From: a virus
Lineage: Duplodnaviria > Heunggongvirae > Uroviricota > Caudoviricetes
Length of the DNA: 7,605 bases
Virus record (IMG/VR): IMGVR_UViG_2713896775_000002
Span: 1 to 7,605 of that record
Reading direction: 5' to 3' (one strand)
Shown here one piece after another: positions 1-7,482 of the stretch. The notes under the pieces were generated by a model. The model did not search any database and was not told where the DNA came from. It saw only the letters and a list, made by a program, of their open reading frames with translations. How positions within the stretch are numbered: position 1 is the stretch's first letter; each line of letters begins with the position of its first letter. The position numbers were made by a program, and so were the translations under genes.

Positions 1-49
1 CAACAGTCTGAACGTACCAGGAACAGCCTCCTTCAGGGCTTGAAGGATA

Positions 50-3000
50 TCAATGTTCGCTTCCTGTTAACTGCCCGACAAGTGCAACCAGTTCGCTTAC
101 CTGATTTTCCAGAGTGCTGATCCGGGTGCCTGCTGTTGCCAGATTTTGACGTAGCGTTGTGTTTTCCTCTTCCAGCGCGGTAACGCGATCATCTGTTTCA
201 CGGGCGACCTGAACAAGTAAACCCGTCACGGCGGAGTAGTCAACATTAAGATAGCGAGTTTCTTCGCGTAGCTCGTTGCCGTCAACGGTCGGACCTTGCA
301 ACTCTTCACCATAATGAGTAAACGATCCCACAGCTTCTGGTATCGCCTCCATTACTTCCTGTGCAATAACGCCAGCATAAGGCATCCCGTTTTCCCTGAG
401 CGTGTAGGTGTATCCGTTCATTTTACGGATTGCTTTCGTCGCGTCGCTGATAACGAGAATATCGTCTTTAAGGTCGCGGTCTGATGACTGATTCAGCGTT
501 GTGCAATTAATAGCGCCATTTACATCAAACAACTGGCCTGCTGACGTTTTTTGCGCATAAAACAGATACGCAGCAGACGTTCCAACCTCAAAAACGTTTT
601 GTCGAGTACTGGAACCCCACACCCTGACAGAAAACGGTAGTTCTGCATTACCTGAGTTCTGTAAAACAAAACGATTACCAGTCCCTGATTGCTTTGTAAG
701 GGTTAAATCAACGGTTGAGTTAACCTCATTCTTGTTGATAGTGAGCGTCTGCGCTGTAGCCCCGTTAACAGCACCTGTTTTGAGTTGAACCGCGCCGTCA
801 TTACCATTTAACAGTATCTCAGCTCCGCTAAAGAAATTTTTTAGCGACAGCATCTTACTTACGCCGACTGATGAACCCAACGCCCACACGAGAGAATTAC
901 CGGTGCTATCAAACCCACGTACAAAGCAATCCATTTTGCTATAGTCTGACGTGCTTCCAAGGACATCAATTCGCCCTCCGCCAGATTTTACCGGGTTAGA
1001 TGTGGTTAATGACCTGACAGCAAGATCGGTAGATGAATTGAGATCGTCTACTGTTAGTAATTTCTTCCATTCCTGCGTCGTTCCATTTTCAATTGTTCTT
1101 CCCCAAAAACCGGAATTGCGGCCTCCGAACTGCACAGCATAATTTTTACTAAATTGAACATGAATGCCGCCAAGAACCATAGAGCCTGCCGGGCCGTTTG
1201 TACTGCCTGCAATTGGTATAAATTTATTAATGTTATCAGTATGCTGCGTGTTCCAGTCTCGCCCTGTTTTTGTAAGCAGTCCTAATGTCGTGTCGAGCGC
1301 TTCGGTTAAAGTAAGATTTTTAAATTTAACTGCGCTACTTTCGCCAAGACTTAAGTTGTTTCGCGCATCTTCTACTGTTGTCGCACCTGTACCTCCTTGC
1401 CCAACAGCTAATGGCAACCAGCCAGTGCCATTATGACAACCCCACAAACCAGATTTGGAAACCTGTAAGCGTGGTGCGCCTGAAGAATACGTAGAATATA
1501 CGTAAGTTGTTTCTTTTCCCTCTTCAACCCTTTCTGTTGATACATCTCTCTTCCATTCAGACCAGGTACCGCTTCCTCCTTCATATATTCGTCTATAAGT
1601 AATTCCCGGATTATTATAAGGGTAGTACACCTGAACGCAGGAAGAAGCAGTGTTGGCTCTCGTTTGGAGCACTATTAAAGCGCCCGCCAGACCGATTGGG
1701 TAATTTAATTCTTCTGTTGCGTAAGCGCTCGTTGGTTGTTGATAGAAACCAGAATATTCACCGGTAAGGGTGTTTAGGTCAGTATTAGCAAGGCCAGCTT
1801 TTTGCTCATACATTACCCGCAAGTTCGCACGTGCTTGCTCGATAGTTCTTCCACCAGTACCACCCTGGGCTAAACCTAACGGAGACCATTGTCCAGAAGA
1901 AGAATCATAAACCCCCCAACTCCCGTTAGTATGGATTTCAAAGAAACGATCACCAGTTGGACCATACATACGAGTTGTTGATTCATTTTGACCAAAGCGG
2001 CTTAATTCATCTCTGCGGGTATGACGTATCCATTGCGGGCCAGAACTTTGGCAGTAAATGTACGAATACAATGATTTTGTATCTGAACCAACAAATAGAC
2101 CGGAATATCTTTTTGTTGACACTTCTGATCTAACTATATAACCAGAAATAAGATTATCCCCGGCACTAGACGCTACTGATGGATAACCTTTCGCTGAGAT
2201 GTAAATCCTGATAAATCCAATATAACCTGATGGCTCAACAGAGATATCAGTGCAGGTCATAGCAACTTCACCAAGACCAATATTGTTACCAACAACGGAT
2301 TGTGCCTGGTTGCGATAATTAAGTGCGTCCGCTGCAGATTTCGCCGCGTTTGTTTCACTGGATTTAGCATTAGTTTCGCTGCTCTTTGCTGCTGCCTCGC
2401 TATTTTTCGCATTGGTTTCTGATTTTTTGGCTGCTGTCGCGGAGTTTGCCGATGCAGTTTGTGAGGCCGCTGCCGCCTGTGCGCTGTTATCCGCATTCGT
2501 CTCAGACGTTTTTGCGGCCTTCGCGGAATTTCCTGCCGCCGTTGCCGAAGAGGCTGCACTACTGGCGCTCGAGGCTGCGCTCGTTTCTGATGATTTCGCT
2601 GCCTCTTTTGAGGCCGCCGCATCCCGGGCTGAGGTGGCAGCTTCTGACGCTTTCGTGGTCGCGGTGGATGCAGAAGTGGCTGCAGATTTTTGTGACGCTG
2701 CAGCATTCGTTTCTGACGTTTTCGCCGCACCGGCACTGGTAGCCGCCGCGCTTTTTGAGGACTCTGCAGCGGCAGCACTTTTTGATGCTTCAGTAGCCTT
2801 TGTTGATGCCGTTCCTGCGCTGGAAGACGCTGACTGAGCCGACGTCGCGGCCTGCCCGGCTGATGTGCTGGCTGCACGTGCTGAGCCTGCAGCATCAGTC
2901 GCATGGGTTGCCGCCTTACGGGCTGATGTGCCGGCATCGCTGGCTGACTTCTTCGCGGCTGCCGTGTTCTGTGCCACTGCGGACGCGTTACGCGCCACCT

Positions 3001-3334
3001 CTTCCACCATCAGTTCAAAGCGGCGCAGTGCCTCCGGACGGGCATCATCCTCCGTCATGGCACCGAGAAAATCATTCAGCGTACCCGGTTGTGAGTCTTC
3101 ATACACGGTGATGGTCCCGGCATGCGATGGCGGGAAGCCTTCCACCATCAGAATAACGCTGTACTGACCGTACTCAACGTCCATGCTGTAACGCCCGGCT
3201 TCATCCGGATTTTCTGAGGCCACCGTGTTCACCACCACCGTGGTGCTGTTACGTTTTGCTTTCAGCTGGATTGTGCAGTTCTGTACCGGTTTACCTGCAC
3301 CGTCTTTCAGTACACCTGAAATCTTTACTGCCAT
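50..3334 (-). CDS. stf: Side tail fibre protein (Stf-like): lambda-type N-terminus, Ala/Ser-rich shaft, non-lambda distal region, C-terminal intramolecular chaperone domain
   Basis: About 1094 codons ending at TGA 50-52. From the ATG at 3334 the N-terminus MAVKISGVLKDGAGKPVQNCTIQLKAKRNSTTVVVNTV...GFPPSHAGTITVYEDSQPGTLNDF matches the lambda Stf N-terminus as I recall it. The ORF track begins two codons earlier at an in-frame GTG (3340); I prefer the ATG because it matches lambda and has a G-rich stretch (GTGGGG) upstream. The C-terminus carries the intramolecular-chaperone motif (see 53..484). Confidence 0.85.
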   Translation of the reverse strand: MAVKISGVLKDGAGKPVQNCTIQLKAKRNSTTVVVNTVASENPDEAGRYSMDVEYGQYSVILMVEGFPPSHAGTITVYEDSQPGTLNDFLGAMTEDDARPEALRRFELMVEEVARNASAVAQNTAAAKKSASDAGTSARKAATHATDAAGSARAASTSAGQAATSAQSASSSAGTASTKATEASKSAAAAESSKSAAATSAGAAKTSETNAAASQKSAATSASTATTKASEAATSARDAAASKEAAKSSETSAASSASSAASSATAAGNSAKAAKTSETNADNSAQAAAASQTASANSATAAKKSETNAKNSEAAAKSSETNAKSSETNAAKSAADALNYRNQAQSVVGNNIGLGEVAMTCTDISVEPSGYIGFIRIYISAKGYPSVASSAGDNLISGYIVRSEVSTKRYSGLFVGSDTKSLYSYIYCQSSGPQWIRHTRRDELSRFGQNESTTRMYGPTGDRFFEIHTNGSWGVYDSSSGQWSPLGLAQGGTGGRTIEQARANLRVMYEQKAGLANTDLNTLTGEYSGFYQQPTSAYATEELNYPIGLAGALIVLQTRANTASSCVQVYYPYNNPGITYRRIYEGGSGTWSEWKRDVSTERVEEGKETTYVYSTYSSGAPRLQVSKSGLWGCHNGTGWLPLAVGQGGTGATTVEDARNNLSLGESSAVKFKNLTLTEALDTTLGLLTKTGRDWNTQHTDNINKFIPIAGSTNGPAGSMVLGGIHVQFSKNYAVQFGGRNSGFWGRTIENGTTQEWKKLLTVDDLNSSTDLAVRSLTTSNPVKSGGGRIDVLGSTSDYSKMDCFVRGFDSTGNSLVWALGSSVGVSKMLSLKNFFSGAEILLNGNDGAVQLKTGAVNGATAQTLTINKNEVNSTVDLTLTKQSGTGNRFVLQNSGNAELPFSVRVWGSSTRQNVFEVGTSAAYLFYAQKTSAGQLFDVNGAINCTTLNQSSDRDLKDDILVISDATKAIRKMNGYTYTLRENGMPYAGVIAQEVMEAIPEAVGSFTHYGEELQGPTVDGNELREETRYLNVDYSAVTGLLVQVARETDDRVTALEEENTTLRQNLATAGTRISTLENQVSELVALVGQLTGSEH
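53..484 (-). other. C-terminal intramolecular chaperone / self-cleaving domain of Stf (endosialidase-chaperone, peptidase S74-like)
   Basis: The last 144 residues begin SDRDLKDDILVISDATKAIRKMNGYTYTL...YAGVIAQEV and end in a predicted coiled-coil-like tail (ALEEENTTLRQNLATAGTRISTLENQVSELVALV). The S-D-R-x-L-K-x-x-I start and the overall pattern match the auto-cleaving C-terminal chaperone domains of phage K1F endosialidase and T5 L-shaped tail fibre, recalled from the literature and not searched. Confidence 0.65.
1343..1414 (-). repeat. Phage tail-fibre 'QGGTG' repeat motif, copy 2 (within stf)
   Basis: Stf residues about 643-666 read LPLAVGQGGTGATTVEDARNNLSLG, sharing the W..PL(A/G)..QGGTG.(R/T)T.E.AR.NL pattern with copy 1. 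It matches the short conserved tail-fibre repeat seen in many enterobacterial phage fibres. Confidence 0.6.
1814..1882 (-). repeat. Phage tail-fibre 'QGGTG' repeat motif, copy 1 (within stf)
   Basis: Stf residues about 487-509 read PLGLAQGGTGGRTIEQARANLRV. I verified the codons GCC CAG GGT GGT ACT GGT GGA on the minus strand at about 1850-1870. Confidence 0.6.
2320..3015 (-). repeat. Ala/Ser/Thr-rich low-complexity shaft region of Stf with degenerate tandem repeats
   Basis: Stf residues about 110-340 are dominated by A, S, T, K and E, with recurring (A)K(T/S)SETNA units at residues 206-213, 276-283, 305-311, 319-325 and 326-332. The DNA shows matching imperfect repeats (for example GCATTCGTTTCTGACGTTTTCGCC near 2703 and GCATTCGTCTCAGACGTTTTTGC near 2494). 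The compositional bias produces the spurious overlapping ORFs in other frames here. Confidence 0.75.
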
Positions 3335-3344
3335 ATTCACCCCA

Positions 3345-3372
3345 CAAAAAAGCCCGCCTGAACCGGCGGGCT
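3345..3372 (-). terminator. Rho-independent terminator downstream of lom, immediately upstream of stf
   Basis: 8-bp stem AGCCCGCC/GGCGGGCT (3351-3358 with 3365-3372, 6-nt loop), followed on the minus strand by TTTTTT (complement of the A-run at 3345-3350). The stf start lies about 12 nt further downstream. Confidence 0.7.
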
Positions 3373-3398
3373 GTCATAACACTGTGTTACCTGGCTAA

Positions 3399-3998
3399 TC
3401 AGAATTTATAACCGACACCCACGATGAAACCGTCAGTGCGCCAGTCACCACTGCCGGAGCCTTCATAAGCAATATCAATGGCCACGGATTCGGTCGGGTT
3501 AAACTGCACGCCAGCCCCCCACGCCAGAGACGTGTTGCTGCGGCGACCGTCATCACTTCCGGTCAGCACTTCGTGCGTTTTCCCCTTGTTGTCAGTTACG
3601 CGGAGATAATCCCCGGAGAAAGTCGAAACACGGCTGTAAGCCACACCCGCCATCGCATACGCGCTAAACCATTCATTCACGCGCACAGACGGCCCCGCCA
3701 TCACGCTGAACCAGCGGTTACGCACGGAATCTTCATGCCAGCGGGTATCGCTGTAATGAGTCAGCTGGCGATTCTTGTCTTCTGCATAGCTGAATGACGT
3801 CACCATCCCCAGCGTGTCCGTAAACTCATAGCGGTATTTCACGTTAATCCCGTTAAGATCATCGCTGCCGGGAACGTTCGTCGAGGCATGAAGATACCCC
3901 GCGCTCAGCGTGGACTGATGTTCAGACGCCCATGCAGGCGCACCGGATACGACCAGACAGATGGCTGCGGACAAAATGGCTGCACAAACTTTACGCAT
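3399..3998 (-). CDS. lom: Lom outer-membrane protein (Ail/Lom/PagC family beta-barrel), 199 aa
   Basis: N-terminal signal peptide MRKVCAAILSAAICLVVSGAPAWA with an AWA|S cleavage site. C-terminus ...DWRTDGFIVGVGYKF ends in Phe, as is typical of outer-membrane beta-barrels. The sequence closely matches lambda Lom as I recall it. RBS GAGAGG lies 6 nt upstream of ATG at 3998. Position between J and stf matches lambda. Confidence 0.93.
   Translation of the reverse strand: MRKVCAAILSAAICLVVSGAPAWASEHQSTLSAGYLHASTNVPGSDDLNGINVKYRYEFTDTLGMVTSFSYAEDKNRQLTHYSDTRWHEDSVRNRWFSVMAGPSVRVNEWFSAYAMAGVAYSRVSTFSGDYLRVTDNKGKTHEVLTGSDDGRRSNTSLAWGAGVQFNPTESVAIDIAYEGSGSGDWRTDGFIVGVGYKF
3927..3998 (-). other. Sec signal peptide of Lom (about 24 aa)
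   Basis: A basic N-terminus (MRK), a hydrophobic core (VCAAILSAAICLVV) and an A-x-A-like cleavage motif (AWA-SE). Confidence 0.7.
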
Positions 3999-4019
3999 AA
4001 TTACCTCTCGCTTTTCTGC

Positions 4020-4068: not shown

Positions 4069-7000
4069 TCAACGAATACTGATGCCGGAAGCAGCCTTTT
4101 TGGTCACAATCACCGTACAGTCGGTGATATTGCCTGCCCCCTGATTGCCTTTCTGGAAAATCTTAAACTCCAGAGTGACGCTTCCCCTGCCACTCGGCAT
4201 ATCAATAACCGCACTGTAACTACCGGGAATGGCCCCTTTAGTTTCTCTGGATGCGATTAATACGCCGTTTTTGCGAACTTCAAAACCATACCCCGTGTAC
4301 CTTGTACCTCCCGGGTTATCACCACTTCCCGGATCATCATACGCTATACCGTTAAAGATAATGGGCGGAATAATGATTTGACGGTCAAAGTTATGATCAT
4401 CGCTGATGGTGACTGTAACCGTCCCGTCTGGTGTTTCCGTGTTACCCCACGTACCAGCCTTTTTCGGGAATGATTTGGATACTGTTTTAACAAAATCACC
4501 TCTGACCTGATTCGCCTCCAGCATGCCCTTAATCGTACAGTTTTCATTTATCGTGACGTTGTTGAGCGTCCCGGAGTTCGCATTCACACTGCCACTAATA
4601 TCCGCATTTTTAGCGGCCAGCTTTCCGTCCGGTGTCAGGGAAAATACCGGTGGATTTCCACCACTGGTAATGGTGGAGGCCGTCAGGCGTTTCAGGAACA
4701 CGTCGTTCATGAATATCTGGTTGCCCTGCGCCACAAACATCGGCGTTTCATTCCCGTTTGCCGGGTCAATAAACGCGATACGGTTAGCAGCAACCAGAAA
4801 CTGGCTCAGTTTGCCTTCCTCTGTATCCTCCATGCTGAGGCCAAGCCCCGCGACATAATGCTTACCGTCTTCGGTCTGCTCAATTTTGACGCCCCACATG
4901 GCATTCCATTTATCGTTGGCGTCTTTCCACTCTTTCGAAAACTCCTCCAGTCTGCTGGCGTTATCCTCCGTCAGGTCGACTTTTTCCAGCAGCTCCTTGC
5001 CGAGATGGGATTCGGTTATCTGGCCTTTGAAAAAATCCAGGTAACCTTCCGCATCATCGCTCGCCCGACCGACGGCCTCCACAAATGCCGATTTGCCTAC
5101 GGTGTTCACACTGCGGATATAAAAGTAATAATCATGGCCCGGTTTGATATTGATACTGGCGGCTATCCAGTACAGCGCCGTACCAAGATAGCGGGCTGTG
5201 GTTTCAACCTGCCTGATATCCGCAATCCGCTTTTCCGAGAACCAGAACTCAAACTGTACCGTCGGATCATAAACCGCAAGATGCGGCGTGGCGGTTATCT
5301 GAAAATAGCCCGGCGTCAGCTCAATCCGCGACGGCGCTGCCGGTGCGGCGATCCGGAACGATACCGATGCCGGATCGCCCTGCTGTCCCCATGCATTTAC
5401 CGCCCGGACTGTCAGCCTGTAATTTCCCAGCGCCAGCTGCCTGAAGCGATATGTGGTTTCCGTCGTCCGGGCCGTGCTGACCAGCCGCTCACTGCCGTCG
5501 TCCGCTGCCACGGTCAGGCGAAGCATAAAGCTCACACCCTTCACCACCTTCGGCGTGTCCCAGCGGGCCAGTACCTGATACTCCCCGCTGTCTGCGGTGA
5601 CTTCGGCAGTCAGGTGCTGCACCGCTGGCGGCGTGACACCATTCACCGTGCCGCTCTGGTCGCTGTCAAAGTGCGCCCCGTTATCCACGATGGCCTCTTT
5701 TTCAGGTACATGCTGCACGGCGGTGATGGCATACGTGCCGTCGTCGTTCTCACGGATACTCACGCAGCGGAACAGGCGCTGGCGCAGCGTCGGCAGCTTC
5801 AGCCCCCACACGCTGTATCCGGCAACGCCGTCAGGAACCCGGCTCACTTTTACCTTCACGCCGTCGGTGACGGACTGAACCTCCACGCTGACCGGATTGC
5901 CATTTCCGTCAACCAGGCTTATCAGCGTGGTGCCGGAGGATGGCAGCGTGATTTCACGGTCGAGCGTCAGCGTCCGGGTCTGGCTGTTCACCGCCAGCAC
6001 GCGCCCGCCGGTGCTGATACCGGCATAGTCATCATCGCAGATTTCAATGACATCGCCCGGTACATGGCGAAGCCCTTCAGCACCCACGCTGAAGTCCACG
6101 GTCTGCGTTTCCAGCAGCTCCGTTTTAATCAGCCACAGCCCGGCGCGGTGTGCCTGCCCCCGGCTGGTACAGCCAAAGGCATCCATCTTCGTGACATTAC
6201 GACCGTAACGGGCAATGGCCTGCGTATCTTCAACAAGCTCTGTCGCCGTCTCCCAGCCGTTGTTCGGGTCAATCCAGTTCACCTCAACGGCATTATGGCG
6301 GTCCTTCAGGGCGCTGAAGCTGTAGCGGAACGGCGCGCCATCATCCGGCATCACCACATTACTGCGGTTATAGGTCCATACCTTATCTGATGGTCGGTCC
6401 TGCACGAACGTCAGCGTCTGCCCGTTCCATACCGGCATACAGCGCATCGCCGAGCAGAAATCACTGAGAACATCCCACGCCTTACGCTGTGTGGTCAGCC
6501 AGGCATTACAGGTGATGCGCGGCTCCGTGCCGCCAAAACCATTCGGTACCAACTGGTCGCAGTACTGGCCGATAACGTACAGCGTCCATTTGTCCACATC
6601 TGCCGCACCAAGACGTTTCCCCATGCCGTAGCGCGGATGGGTCAGCATATCCCACAGACACCAGGCCATGTTGTTGCTGTATGCCGGTTTTAACGTTCCG
6701 TCCCAGATACCACTGTATTGCCGCGTCTGCGGGTTATAGTTCGACGGCACCTGCAGAATGCGCCCGCGAAGATGATAATTACGGCTCACCTGCTGGCTGC
6801 CGAACTGCTCCGAATCCACCTGTACGCCGACCAGTGCCGTGTTCGGGTAGCACTGTTTCACATCGATGATTTCGGTGTATGACGACCAGAGCGTTTTGTT
6901 CTGCAGCTGGTCTGTGGTGCTGTCCGGCGTCATCCTGCGCATCCGGATATTGAACGGGCGCGGCGGCAGGTTACCCACCACCACCGATGCCAGATACTGT

Positions 7001-7482
7001 GAGGTGGCTTTGCCTTTAATGGTGATGTCTTTTTCCGTCACCCAGCCACCGTTACGTTGTATCTGAACCAGCAGGCGGACTTCCGACGGATTCCGGTCCC
7101 CCTTTGAGGTGGTTTCCACCAGTGCCTGCACACCGAAGGTAAAGCGCAGTCGGTCGATGTTTGCCGACGTGATGGTGCGGGTGATCGGCGTGTCGTATTT
7201 CACTTCCGTACCCAGCACCGTCTCGGAGCCGGAGGATTCAAATCCCTCCGGCGGAGTCTGCTCCTGCTCACCGGCCCGGAACACCACCGTGACACCGGCG
7301 ATGTTGGTATTCCCCTCACTGTCCAGCACCGGCGTACTGTTCAGCAGCACGCTTTTTAATCCATCCACCGGACCTTCAATCGGCCCTTCACTGATGGCAT
7401 CAATCACACTCAGCAACTGCGTGGATTTCAGGTTGTCCTTCGCTTCGCGCGGGGTATGCCCCTTACTGCTGCCTTTACCCAT
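4069..7482 (-). CDS. J: Host specificity protein J (central tail fibre / tail tip protein), 1137 aa
   Basis: Uninterrupted 1137-aa ORF. The N-terminus [41 protein letters not shown] and most of the length match lambda J as I recall it, including fibronectin-III-like central segments. ATG at 7482 is preceded by GGAG with an 8-nt spacer. Size and position before lom match lambda. Confidence 0.95.

Follow-up and report, generated by a model that had tools for sequence, protein, structure and literature searches.

Does the side tail fibre protein (Stf) encoded in this 7,605-nt stretch of DNA (hereinafter designated the window) carry its own chaperone at its C terminus, and if so, at which bond is that chaperone cut off? 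We find that this lambdoid Stf very probably ends in an S74 (MEROPS/Pfam) intramolecular chaperone domain of 144 residues, by which it would be folded in cis and which would be shed as a 15.8 kDa piece once the chain has been cut between Ser950 and Ser951 in the trimer. That an S74 domain ends Stf is already known, and the identification as such holds no substantive novelty. Near-identical proteins bear the RefSeq name 'pyocin knob domain-containing S74 family peptidase', other databases call such proteins 'peptidase S74' or 'chaperone of endosialidase', and a tail-fibre atlas reports the domain as common across several fibre classes (PMC12143355). The Stf case adds no biology beyond established facts about the S74 domain. 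For annotation, the length to enter for the mature fibre is 950 aa, and its receptor-binding tip would be exposed only after the 144-aa domain has been shed.

A lambda-type Stf and its C-terminal domain

J, lom and stf are the three large genes of the window, all of them on the minus strand (Table 1), and their order is that of the tail end of a lambda-like prophage. The mechanically called stf open reading frame (50..3340, minus strand; 1096 aa) opens at a GTG at position 3340. Judged from the sequence, the true start is almost certainly the ATG at window position 3334, two codons inside the GTG frame, because the RefSeq coding sequence in a 98.5% identical prophage begins there and lambda Stf (PDB 9e7m) aligns from that Met. 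Residues are hereinafter counted from the ATG (1-1094), and GTG-based numbers are higher by two. The N terminus of Stf matches the Pfam family phage_tail_N (PF08400) with an E value of 3.9e-72 and, in a sequence search of the PDB, residues 1-94 of solved lambda Stf (9e7m) with an E value of 4.2e-52; by this N-terminal domain and by its position after J and lom, the protein is a lambda-type Stf. It shares with lambda Stf the J-lom-stf position, the N-terminal tail-attachment domain and a similar Ala/Ser-rich shaft, whereas lambda has a separate, trans-acting Tfa and the Stf described here has a cis-acting S74 domain at its distal end. Of the 5426 complete E. coli genomes compared, 820 contain the window region 1..1500.

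A strong intrinsic-terminator hairpin lies between lom and the start of stf (window 3351..3372, minus strand; AGCCCGCC-GGTTCA-GGCGGGCT, then TTTTT) and is also annotated as a terminator in the phages mEp460 and Ayreon; late transcription presumably has to read through it for stf to be transcribed. Further along the fibre, Stf residues 522-666 (GTG 524-668; window 1337..1771, minus strand) match the knob domain of an R2-type pyocin tail fibre (PDB 6cl5, E value 2.3e-06). The Ala/Ser-rich shaft of stf is also overlapped, at 2257..2937 and 2386..3167, by long ORFs of up to 226 aa in several other frames, the plus strand included, which are most likely by-products of skewed composition rather than genes.

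Table 1. Genes of the window and features of the distal end of Stf (residues counted from the ATG).
Feature	Window position	Strand	Description and basis
J	4069..7482	-	ORF list and RefSeq
lom	3399..3998	-	ORF list and RefSeq
stf (side tail fibre)	CDS 50..3334	-	1094 aa from ATG; stop codon 50..52
Adaptor, 48 residues at the end of the predicted mature fibre	485..628	-	Residues 903-950; VRVWGSSTRQNVFEV...FYAQK...VNGAINCTTLNQS; consensus of 22-homologue alignment
Predicted scissile bond	482..487	-	Ser950 (487..485) / Ser951 (484..482); alignment to tested sites and published cuts
S74 self-cleaving / C-terminal intramolecular chaperone domain	53..484	-	Residues 951-1094, 144 aa, 15.8 kDa, pI 4.4; Pfam, profile and fold matches
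Lys956, predicted general base of the Ser-Lys dyad (Ser + 5)	467..469	-	Invariant in 22-homologue alignment; aligned to K916, K1269 and K592
Conserved core motifs	326..415	-	GYTYT (974-978), AGVIAQEV (987-994), PEAVG (999-1003); nearly invariant in 22-homologue alignment
Long C-terminal helix	68..238	-	Residues ~1033-1089; AlphaFold helix 105-161 of 166-aa fragment, pLDDT 87-96

The C-terminal part of Stf matches the Pfam family Peptidase_S74 (PF13884) over GTG-based residues 953-1004 and profile positions 1-57 of 58, with an E value of 8.6e-12 and a score of 45.6 bits (gathering score 22), and the first position of the profile falls exactly on Ser951. From this Ser to the final codon before the stop, the coding sequence comprises 432 nt, or 144 codons, which form the very end of the 1094-residue protein; most homologues likewise carry the domain at the C terminus, the median distance between the Ser and the last residue being 120 residues. 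A search of NCBIfam profiles gave no useful match. The motif at the head of the domain, SDRDLK, occurs only once in Stf (residues 951-956, GTG 953-958; window 484..467), within NQSSDRDLKDDI (window 493..458). The earlier note had located it at about residues 951-960 and coordinates 461-490, which is right to within a few bases when counted from the ATG.

A six-residue motif could in principle arise by chance in a repetitive fibre protein that has no protease domain, and a loose version of the pattern, SDxx[LIVMFY]K, does appear in 5% of shuffled Stf sequences. The strict pattern SD[RK]xLK, however, appears in only 0.12% of 20,000 shuffles; together with the Pfam E value of 8.6e-12, the profile matches to solved S74 domains and the family-specific fold (both given below), this effectively refutes a chance match, the probability of which we consider practically nil.

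Similarity within the S74 domain extends beyond the head motif. GVIAQEV..LPEAV is common to the Stf domain and to the S74-type domain of MyRF, and GVIAQ is common to K1F as well. In the profile match, Tyr977 of Stf aligns with MyRF Tyr615, a residue required for accurate cleavage of MyRF (PMC8326128).

The Ser-Lys dyad and the predicted position of the cut

In a joint alignment, Ser951 and Lys956 share columns with the Ser and Lys of K1F endoNF (S911/K916), T5 pb1 (S1264/K1269), DT57C LtfA, S16 gp37 and MyRF (S587/K592; the solved MyRF sequence in the alignment carries S587A at the Ser position). For K1F and T5, gene 17 and ltf were taken from the respective genomes and aligned directly, and the positions of their dyads agree with the literature. 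Alignment to these two proteins had been named in the earlier note as one way to check its prediction, and the Ser and Lys are conserved in both, as they are in 184 of the 186 homologues that cover the site. Asp follows the Ser in 185 of the 186, and Lys956 is kept in all of them and in two more that cover the Lys only. The family is very large, comprising 3952 cluster representatives at E<=1e-3. Cys replaces the nucleophilic Ser, with the Lys retained, in two of the 186 homologues, P0128 (residue 544) and P0192 (residue 224), e.g. TQTCDRELKDDI; S74 self-cleavage may in these two rely on a Cys-Lys pair instead.

The local context of the dyad varies, reading SDRDLK in Stf, SDARLK in T5, SDRRIK in S16, SDLRAK in MyRF, SGIEYK in DT57C LtfA and SNGERK in K1F, and the only features shared by all six contexts are the Ser and the Lys five residues on. 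The S-D-(R/K)-x-L-K context quoted in the earlier note is accordingly not universal.

A PDB sequence search with the whole of Stf or with its C-terminal 156 aa found only S16 gp37, with SSDRRIKKDI placed on SSDRDLKDDI, and, weakly, MyRF; neither query retrieved K1F or T5 by this direct route. With a profile built from 22 homologues, S16 gp37 is matched at an E value of 2.2e-11 and the MyRF ICA at 1.1e-10, and the first residue of 3gud, the released chaperone of GA-1, is aligned with Ser951. A profile from approximately 190 homologues, run against four sequences, gave non-significant E values for K1F (0.05) and T5 (0.39), but its short local alignments to the two did land on the right motifs. 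It is through fold, short motifs and intermediate relatives that Stf is linked to K1F and T5.

Among the known systems, S16 gp37 (6f45) is the closest solved relative by sequence, with the same ..LNxS|SDRxxKxDI cut context as Stf and a similarity that reaches into the last 12 mature residues (GAIxCxxLNxS). Unlike Stf, S16 gp37 belongs to the T-even long tail fibres, and its exposed tip is the docking site of gp38, a separate adhesin encoded by the adjacent gene. No gp38-like gene comes after stf in the present case or in the phages mEp460, Ayreon and PhiR70_1; the S16 domain comprises 113 aa, compared with 144 aa and a longer coiled coil in Stf. T5 pb1 differs in that its overall similarity to Stf is non-significant and its preceding receptor-binding domains are unrelated. 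K1F endoNF (3gw6), whose C-terminal chaperone is the type example of MEROPS family S74, is the tailspike enzyme found in a T7-like podovirus, with a SNGERK context and large domain insertions. MyRF ICA (7dc3) belongs to a eukaryotic membrane-tethered transcription factor, in which the domain serves to release a DNA-binding trimer rather than to mature a fibre.

The published cuts precede the Ser: Thr1263|Ser1264 in T5 pb1 (PMC4690869), Pro586|Ser587 in MyRF as located by mass spectrometry (PMC8326128), and DLNVS^SDRRIKK, between two serines, in S16 gp37 (PMC7917993). For K1F, the T5 study describes the Ser as leaving with the chaperone, the same as in T5 (PMC4690869). Cleavage at Ser950|Ser951 is therefore expected in Stf and, by analogy with these proteins, the cut almost certainly falls just before Ser951. 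The predicted products are a 950-aa mature fibre of 98.9 kDa and a 144-aa acidic fragment of 15.8 kDa. The earlier note had arrived at the same bond, within NQS-SDRDLK, and at a mature fibre about 144 residues shorter than the ORF, which is the outcome to be expected from the T5, MyRF and S16 cuts.

A genuine S74 chaperone that is cut after the Ser instead (Ser951|Asp952) would leave a 951-aa fibre and release a 143-aa piece. The sole hint of such a cut comes from phi29, in which the Ser was modelled on the mature side, and the density for it there is described as weak or less convincing. By contrast, mass spectrometry places the MyRF cut before the Ser (PMC8326128), the Ser is lost together with the chaperone in T5 and K1F (PMC4690869), and S16 gp37, the closest solved relative, is cut at S^SDRRIKK in the same S-S context as is found in Stf (PMC7917993). 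We consider cleavage after Ser951 quite improbable and retain Ser950|Ser951 as the predicted scissile bond.

Predicted fold and release of the domain

The AlphaFold model of the last 166 residues of Stf (mean pLDDT 82.4) combines short helices and a small sheet with a long hairpin and, at the C terminus, a helix of 57 residues. When the model was compared with the PDB by Foldseek, MyRF ICA (7dc3), the K1F chaperone (3gw6) and the GA-1 chaperone (3gud) ranked first and nothing else specific was found; overall, the only specific fold matches are four solved S74-type domains, 7dc3, 3gw6, 3gud and 4uw8. The TM-scores of these matches, obtained with a monomer model of the Stf domain, are low (0.3-0.5) because a monomer is being compared with interlaced trimers. 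As modelled, the Stf domain has the architecture characteristic of the S74 fold, namely a small alpha/beta core that includes a hairpin and, after this core, a long, putatively coiled-coil helix. This C-terminal helix is predicted to form a trimeric coiled coil that drives trimerisation, and the equivalent helix is a coiled coil in MyRF and T5 (PMC8326128, PMC4690869). Stf also gives a weak match to the coiled-coil Pfam family APC_N_CC.

A maturation pathway can be proposed for Stf, each step of which is modelled on the solved relatives. The C-terminal coiled coil and the alpha/beta core would bring three Stf chains into register, and this register would in turn template the folding of the trimeric distal fibre. 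Within the trimer, Lys956 would activate the hydroxyl of Ser951 for attack on the Ser950-Ser951 bond, upon which the 15.8 kDa domain, with the N terminus SDRDLKDD..., would be released. The resulting mature fibre of 950 residues would end in ...AINCTTLNQS, its distal tip now exposed for receptor binding. The identity of the domain, its conserved dyad, its fold and the gene context emerge from the present analysis itself; the dependence of cleavage on the trimer, the exact bond and the independence from Tfa are what we infer from these relatives. Cryo-EM of virions that bear other S74-ending fibres shows no density for the S74 domain (PMC12143355).

The region just before the cut sets Stf apart from K1F and T5. 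Most of the S74 module's close relatives in E. coli retain the adaptor formed by residues 903-950, PhiR70_1 being an exception, and the adaptor is similar to a motif that recurs in T4 gp34, the proximal long tail fibre (profile matches to 4uxe and 5nxf, E value ~2e-3). Its final strand, GAINCTTLNQS, resembles the tip of S16 gp37, GAIYCRDLNVS, including the Cys. In K1F and T5, a folding sensor lies in the preceding stalk of a neighbouring chain, formed by R897 in the former and by R1250 and D1239, within an interdigitated region, in the latter (PMC4690869, PMC8326128). When the sensor Arg and Asp were looked for by alignment in the region before the Stf cut, none was evident: residues 918-950 contain no Arg, and the aligned positions are occupied by Ser or Thr.

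The lack of a counterpart to K1F R897 and T5 R1250/D1239, together with a T4 gp34-like motif in place of a K1F-type stalk upstream of the cut, would be compatible with a domain that folds and trimerises the fibre but then stays in place as a distal coiled-coil cap. However, MyRF also has no sensor Arg and cleaves without stalk contacts (PMC8326128), so the missing Arg weakens no feature that defines the family. Retention of Ser and Lys in 184/186 homologues would be hard to explain had catalysis been lost. In T5, moreover, the uncleaved domain blocks receptor binding (PMC4690869), and its retention would thus probably disable the fibre, whereas exactly the same domain is present in viable phages. 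A permanently capped fibre is accordingly very improbable in our estimation, and release of the domain remains the preferred reading.

Stf modules and tfa remnants in related phages and prophages

The viable, isolated lambdoid phages mEp460, Ayreon and PhiR70_1 encode Stf proteins of 1202, 1252 and 830 aa, respectively, and the C terminus of each is formed by the same 144-aa domain, with S|SDRDLK at the predicted cut. PhiR70_1 has another sequence immediately ahead of this cut, which indicates that the domain is shared among fibres with different tips. The listed titles of papers that mention mEp460 are those of genome or virome surveys, and none of these titles has Stf processing as its subject.

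A chaperone that acts in cis should make a separate Tfa assembly protein unnecessary, and the gene context can be compared with this expectation. The Pfam family Caudo_TAP is named for the separate tail fibre assembly protein of lambda; mEp460, Ayreon and PhiR70_1 have neither an annotated tfa nor a match to this family downstream of stf. Related E. coli prophages contain a 44-aa C-terminal remnant of Tfa located 48 nt after stf, which matches positions 90-130 of the 131 in Caudo_TAP only. An intact tfa or a gp38-like adhesin gene was sought downstream of stf in the three phages and in two prophages, and only the tfa stub and unrelated small ORFs were found. The tfa partner that immediately follows stf in a lambda-type arrangement is, in other words, reduced to a stub in the related prophages and missing from the three phages. 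The stub has the appearance of a scar left by a module swap in which most of tfa was lost, and the overall context fits a scenario in which the cis-acting chaperone would have made Tfa dispensable. In the related-prophage loci, the 44-aa tfa pseudogene fragment lies at 3867..4001 of locus L003 and at 5870..6001 of locus L001.

We further entertain, as a tentative proposal that we would not yet favour, that cleavage of Stf needs no stalk Arg as its trigger (coiled-coil trimerisation might, for instance, suffice, as has been proposed for MyRF), and that in this lambdoid lineage the cis-acting S74 domain has fully replaced Tfa, of which the 44-aa stub would be the scar. More remotely, the exposed tip GAINCTTLNQS may be capped by an unlinked adhesin, in a manner comparable to the docking of gp38 on S16 gp37. 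A fibre ending of the S74 type should fold without a helper gene, and such helper-free folding would make it a convenient module for retargeting lambda-based particles.

In strain RMDEC332 (locus L003), two separate tfa remnants downstream of stf flank a SAM-dependent methyltransferase gene (2818..3812), which lies next to the lambda attachment region on its bioA/ybhB side. This gene resembles cargo that has been inserted at the junction of the fibre module.
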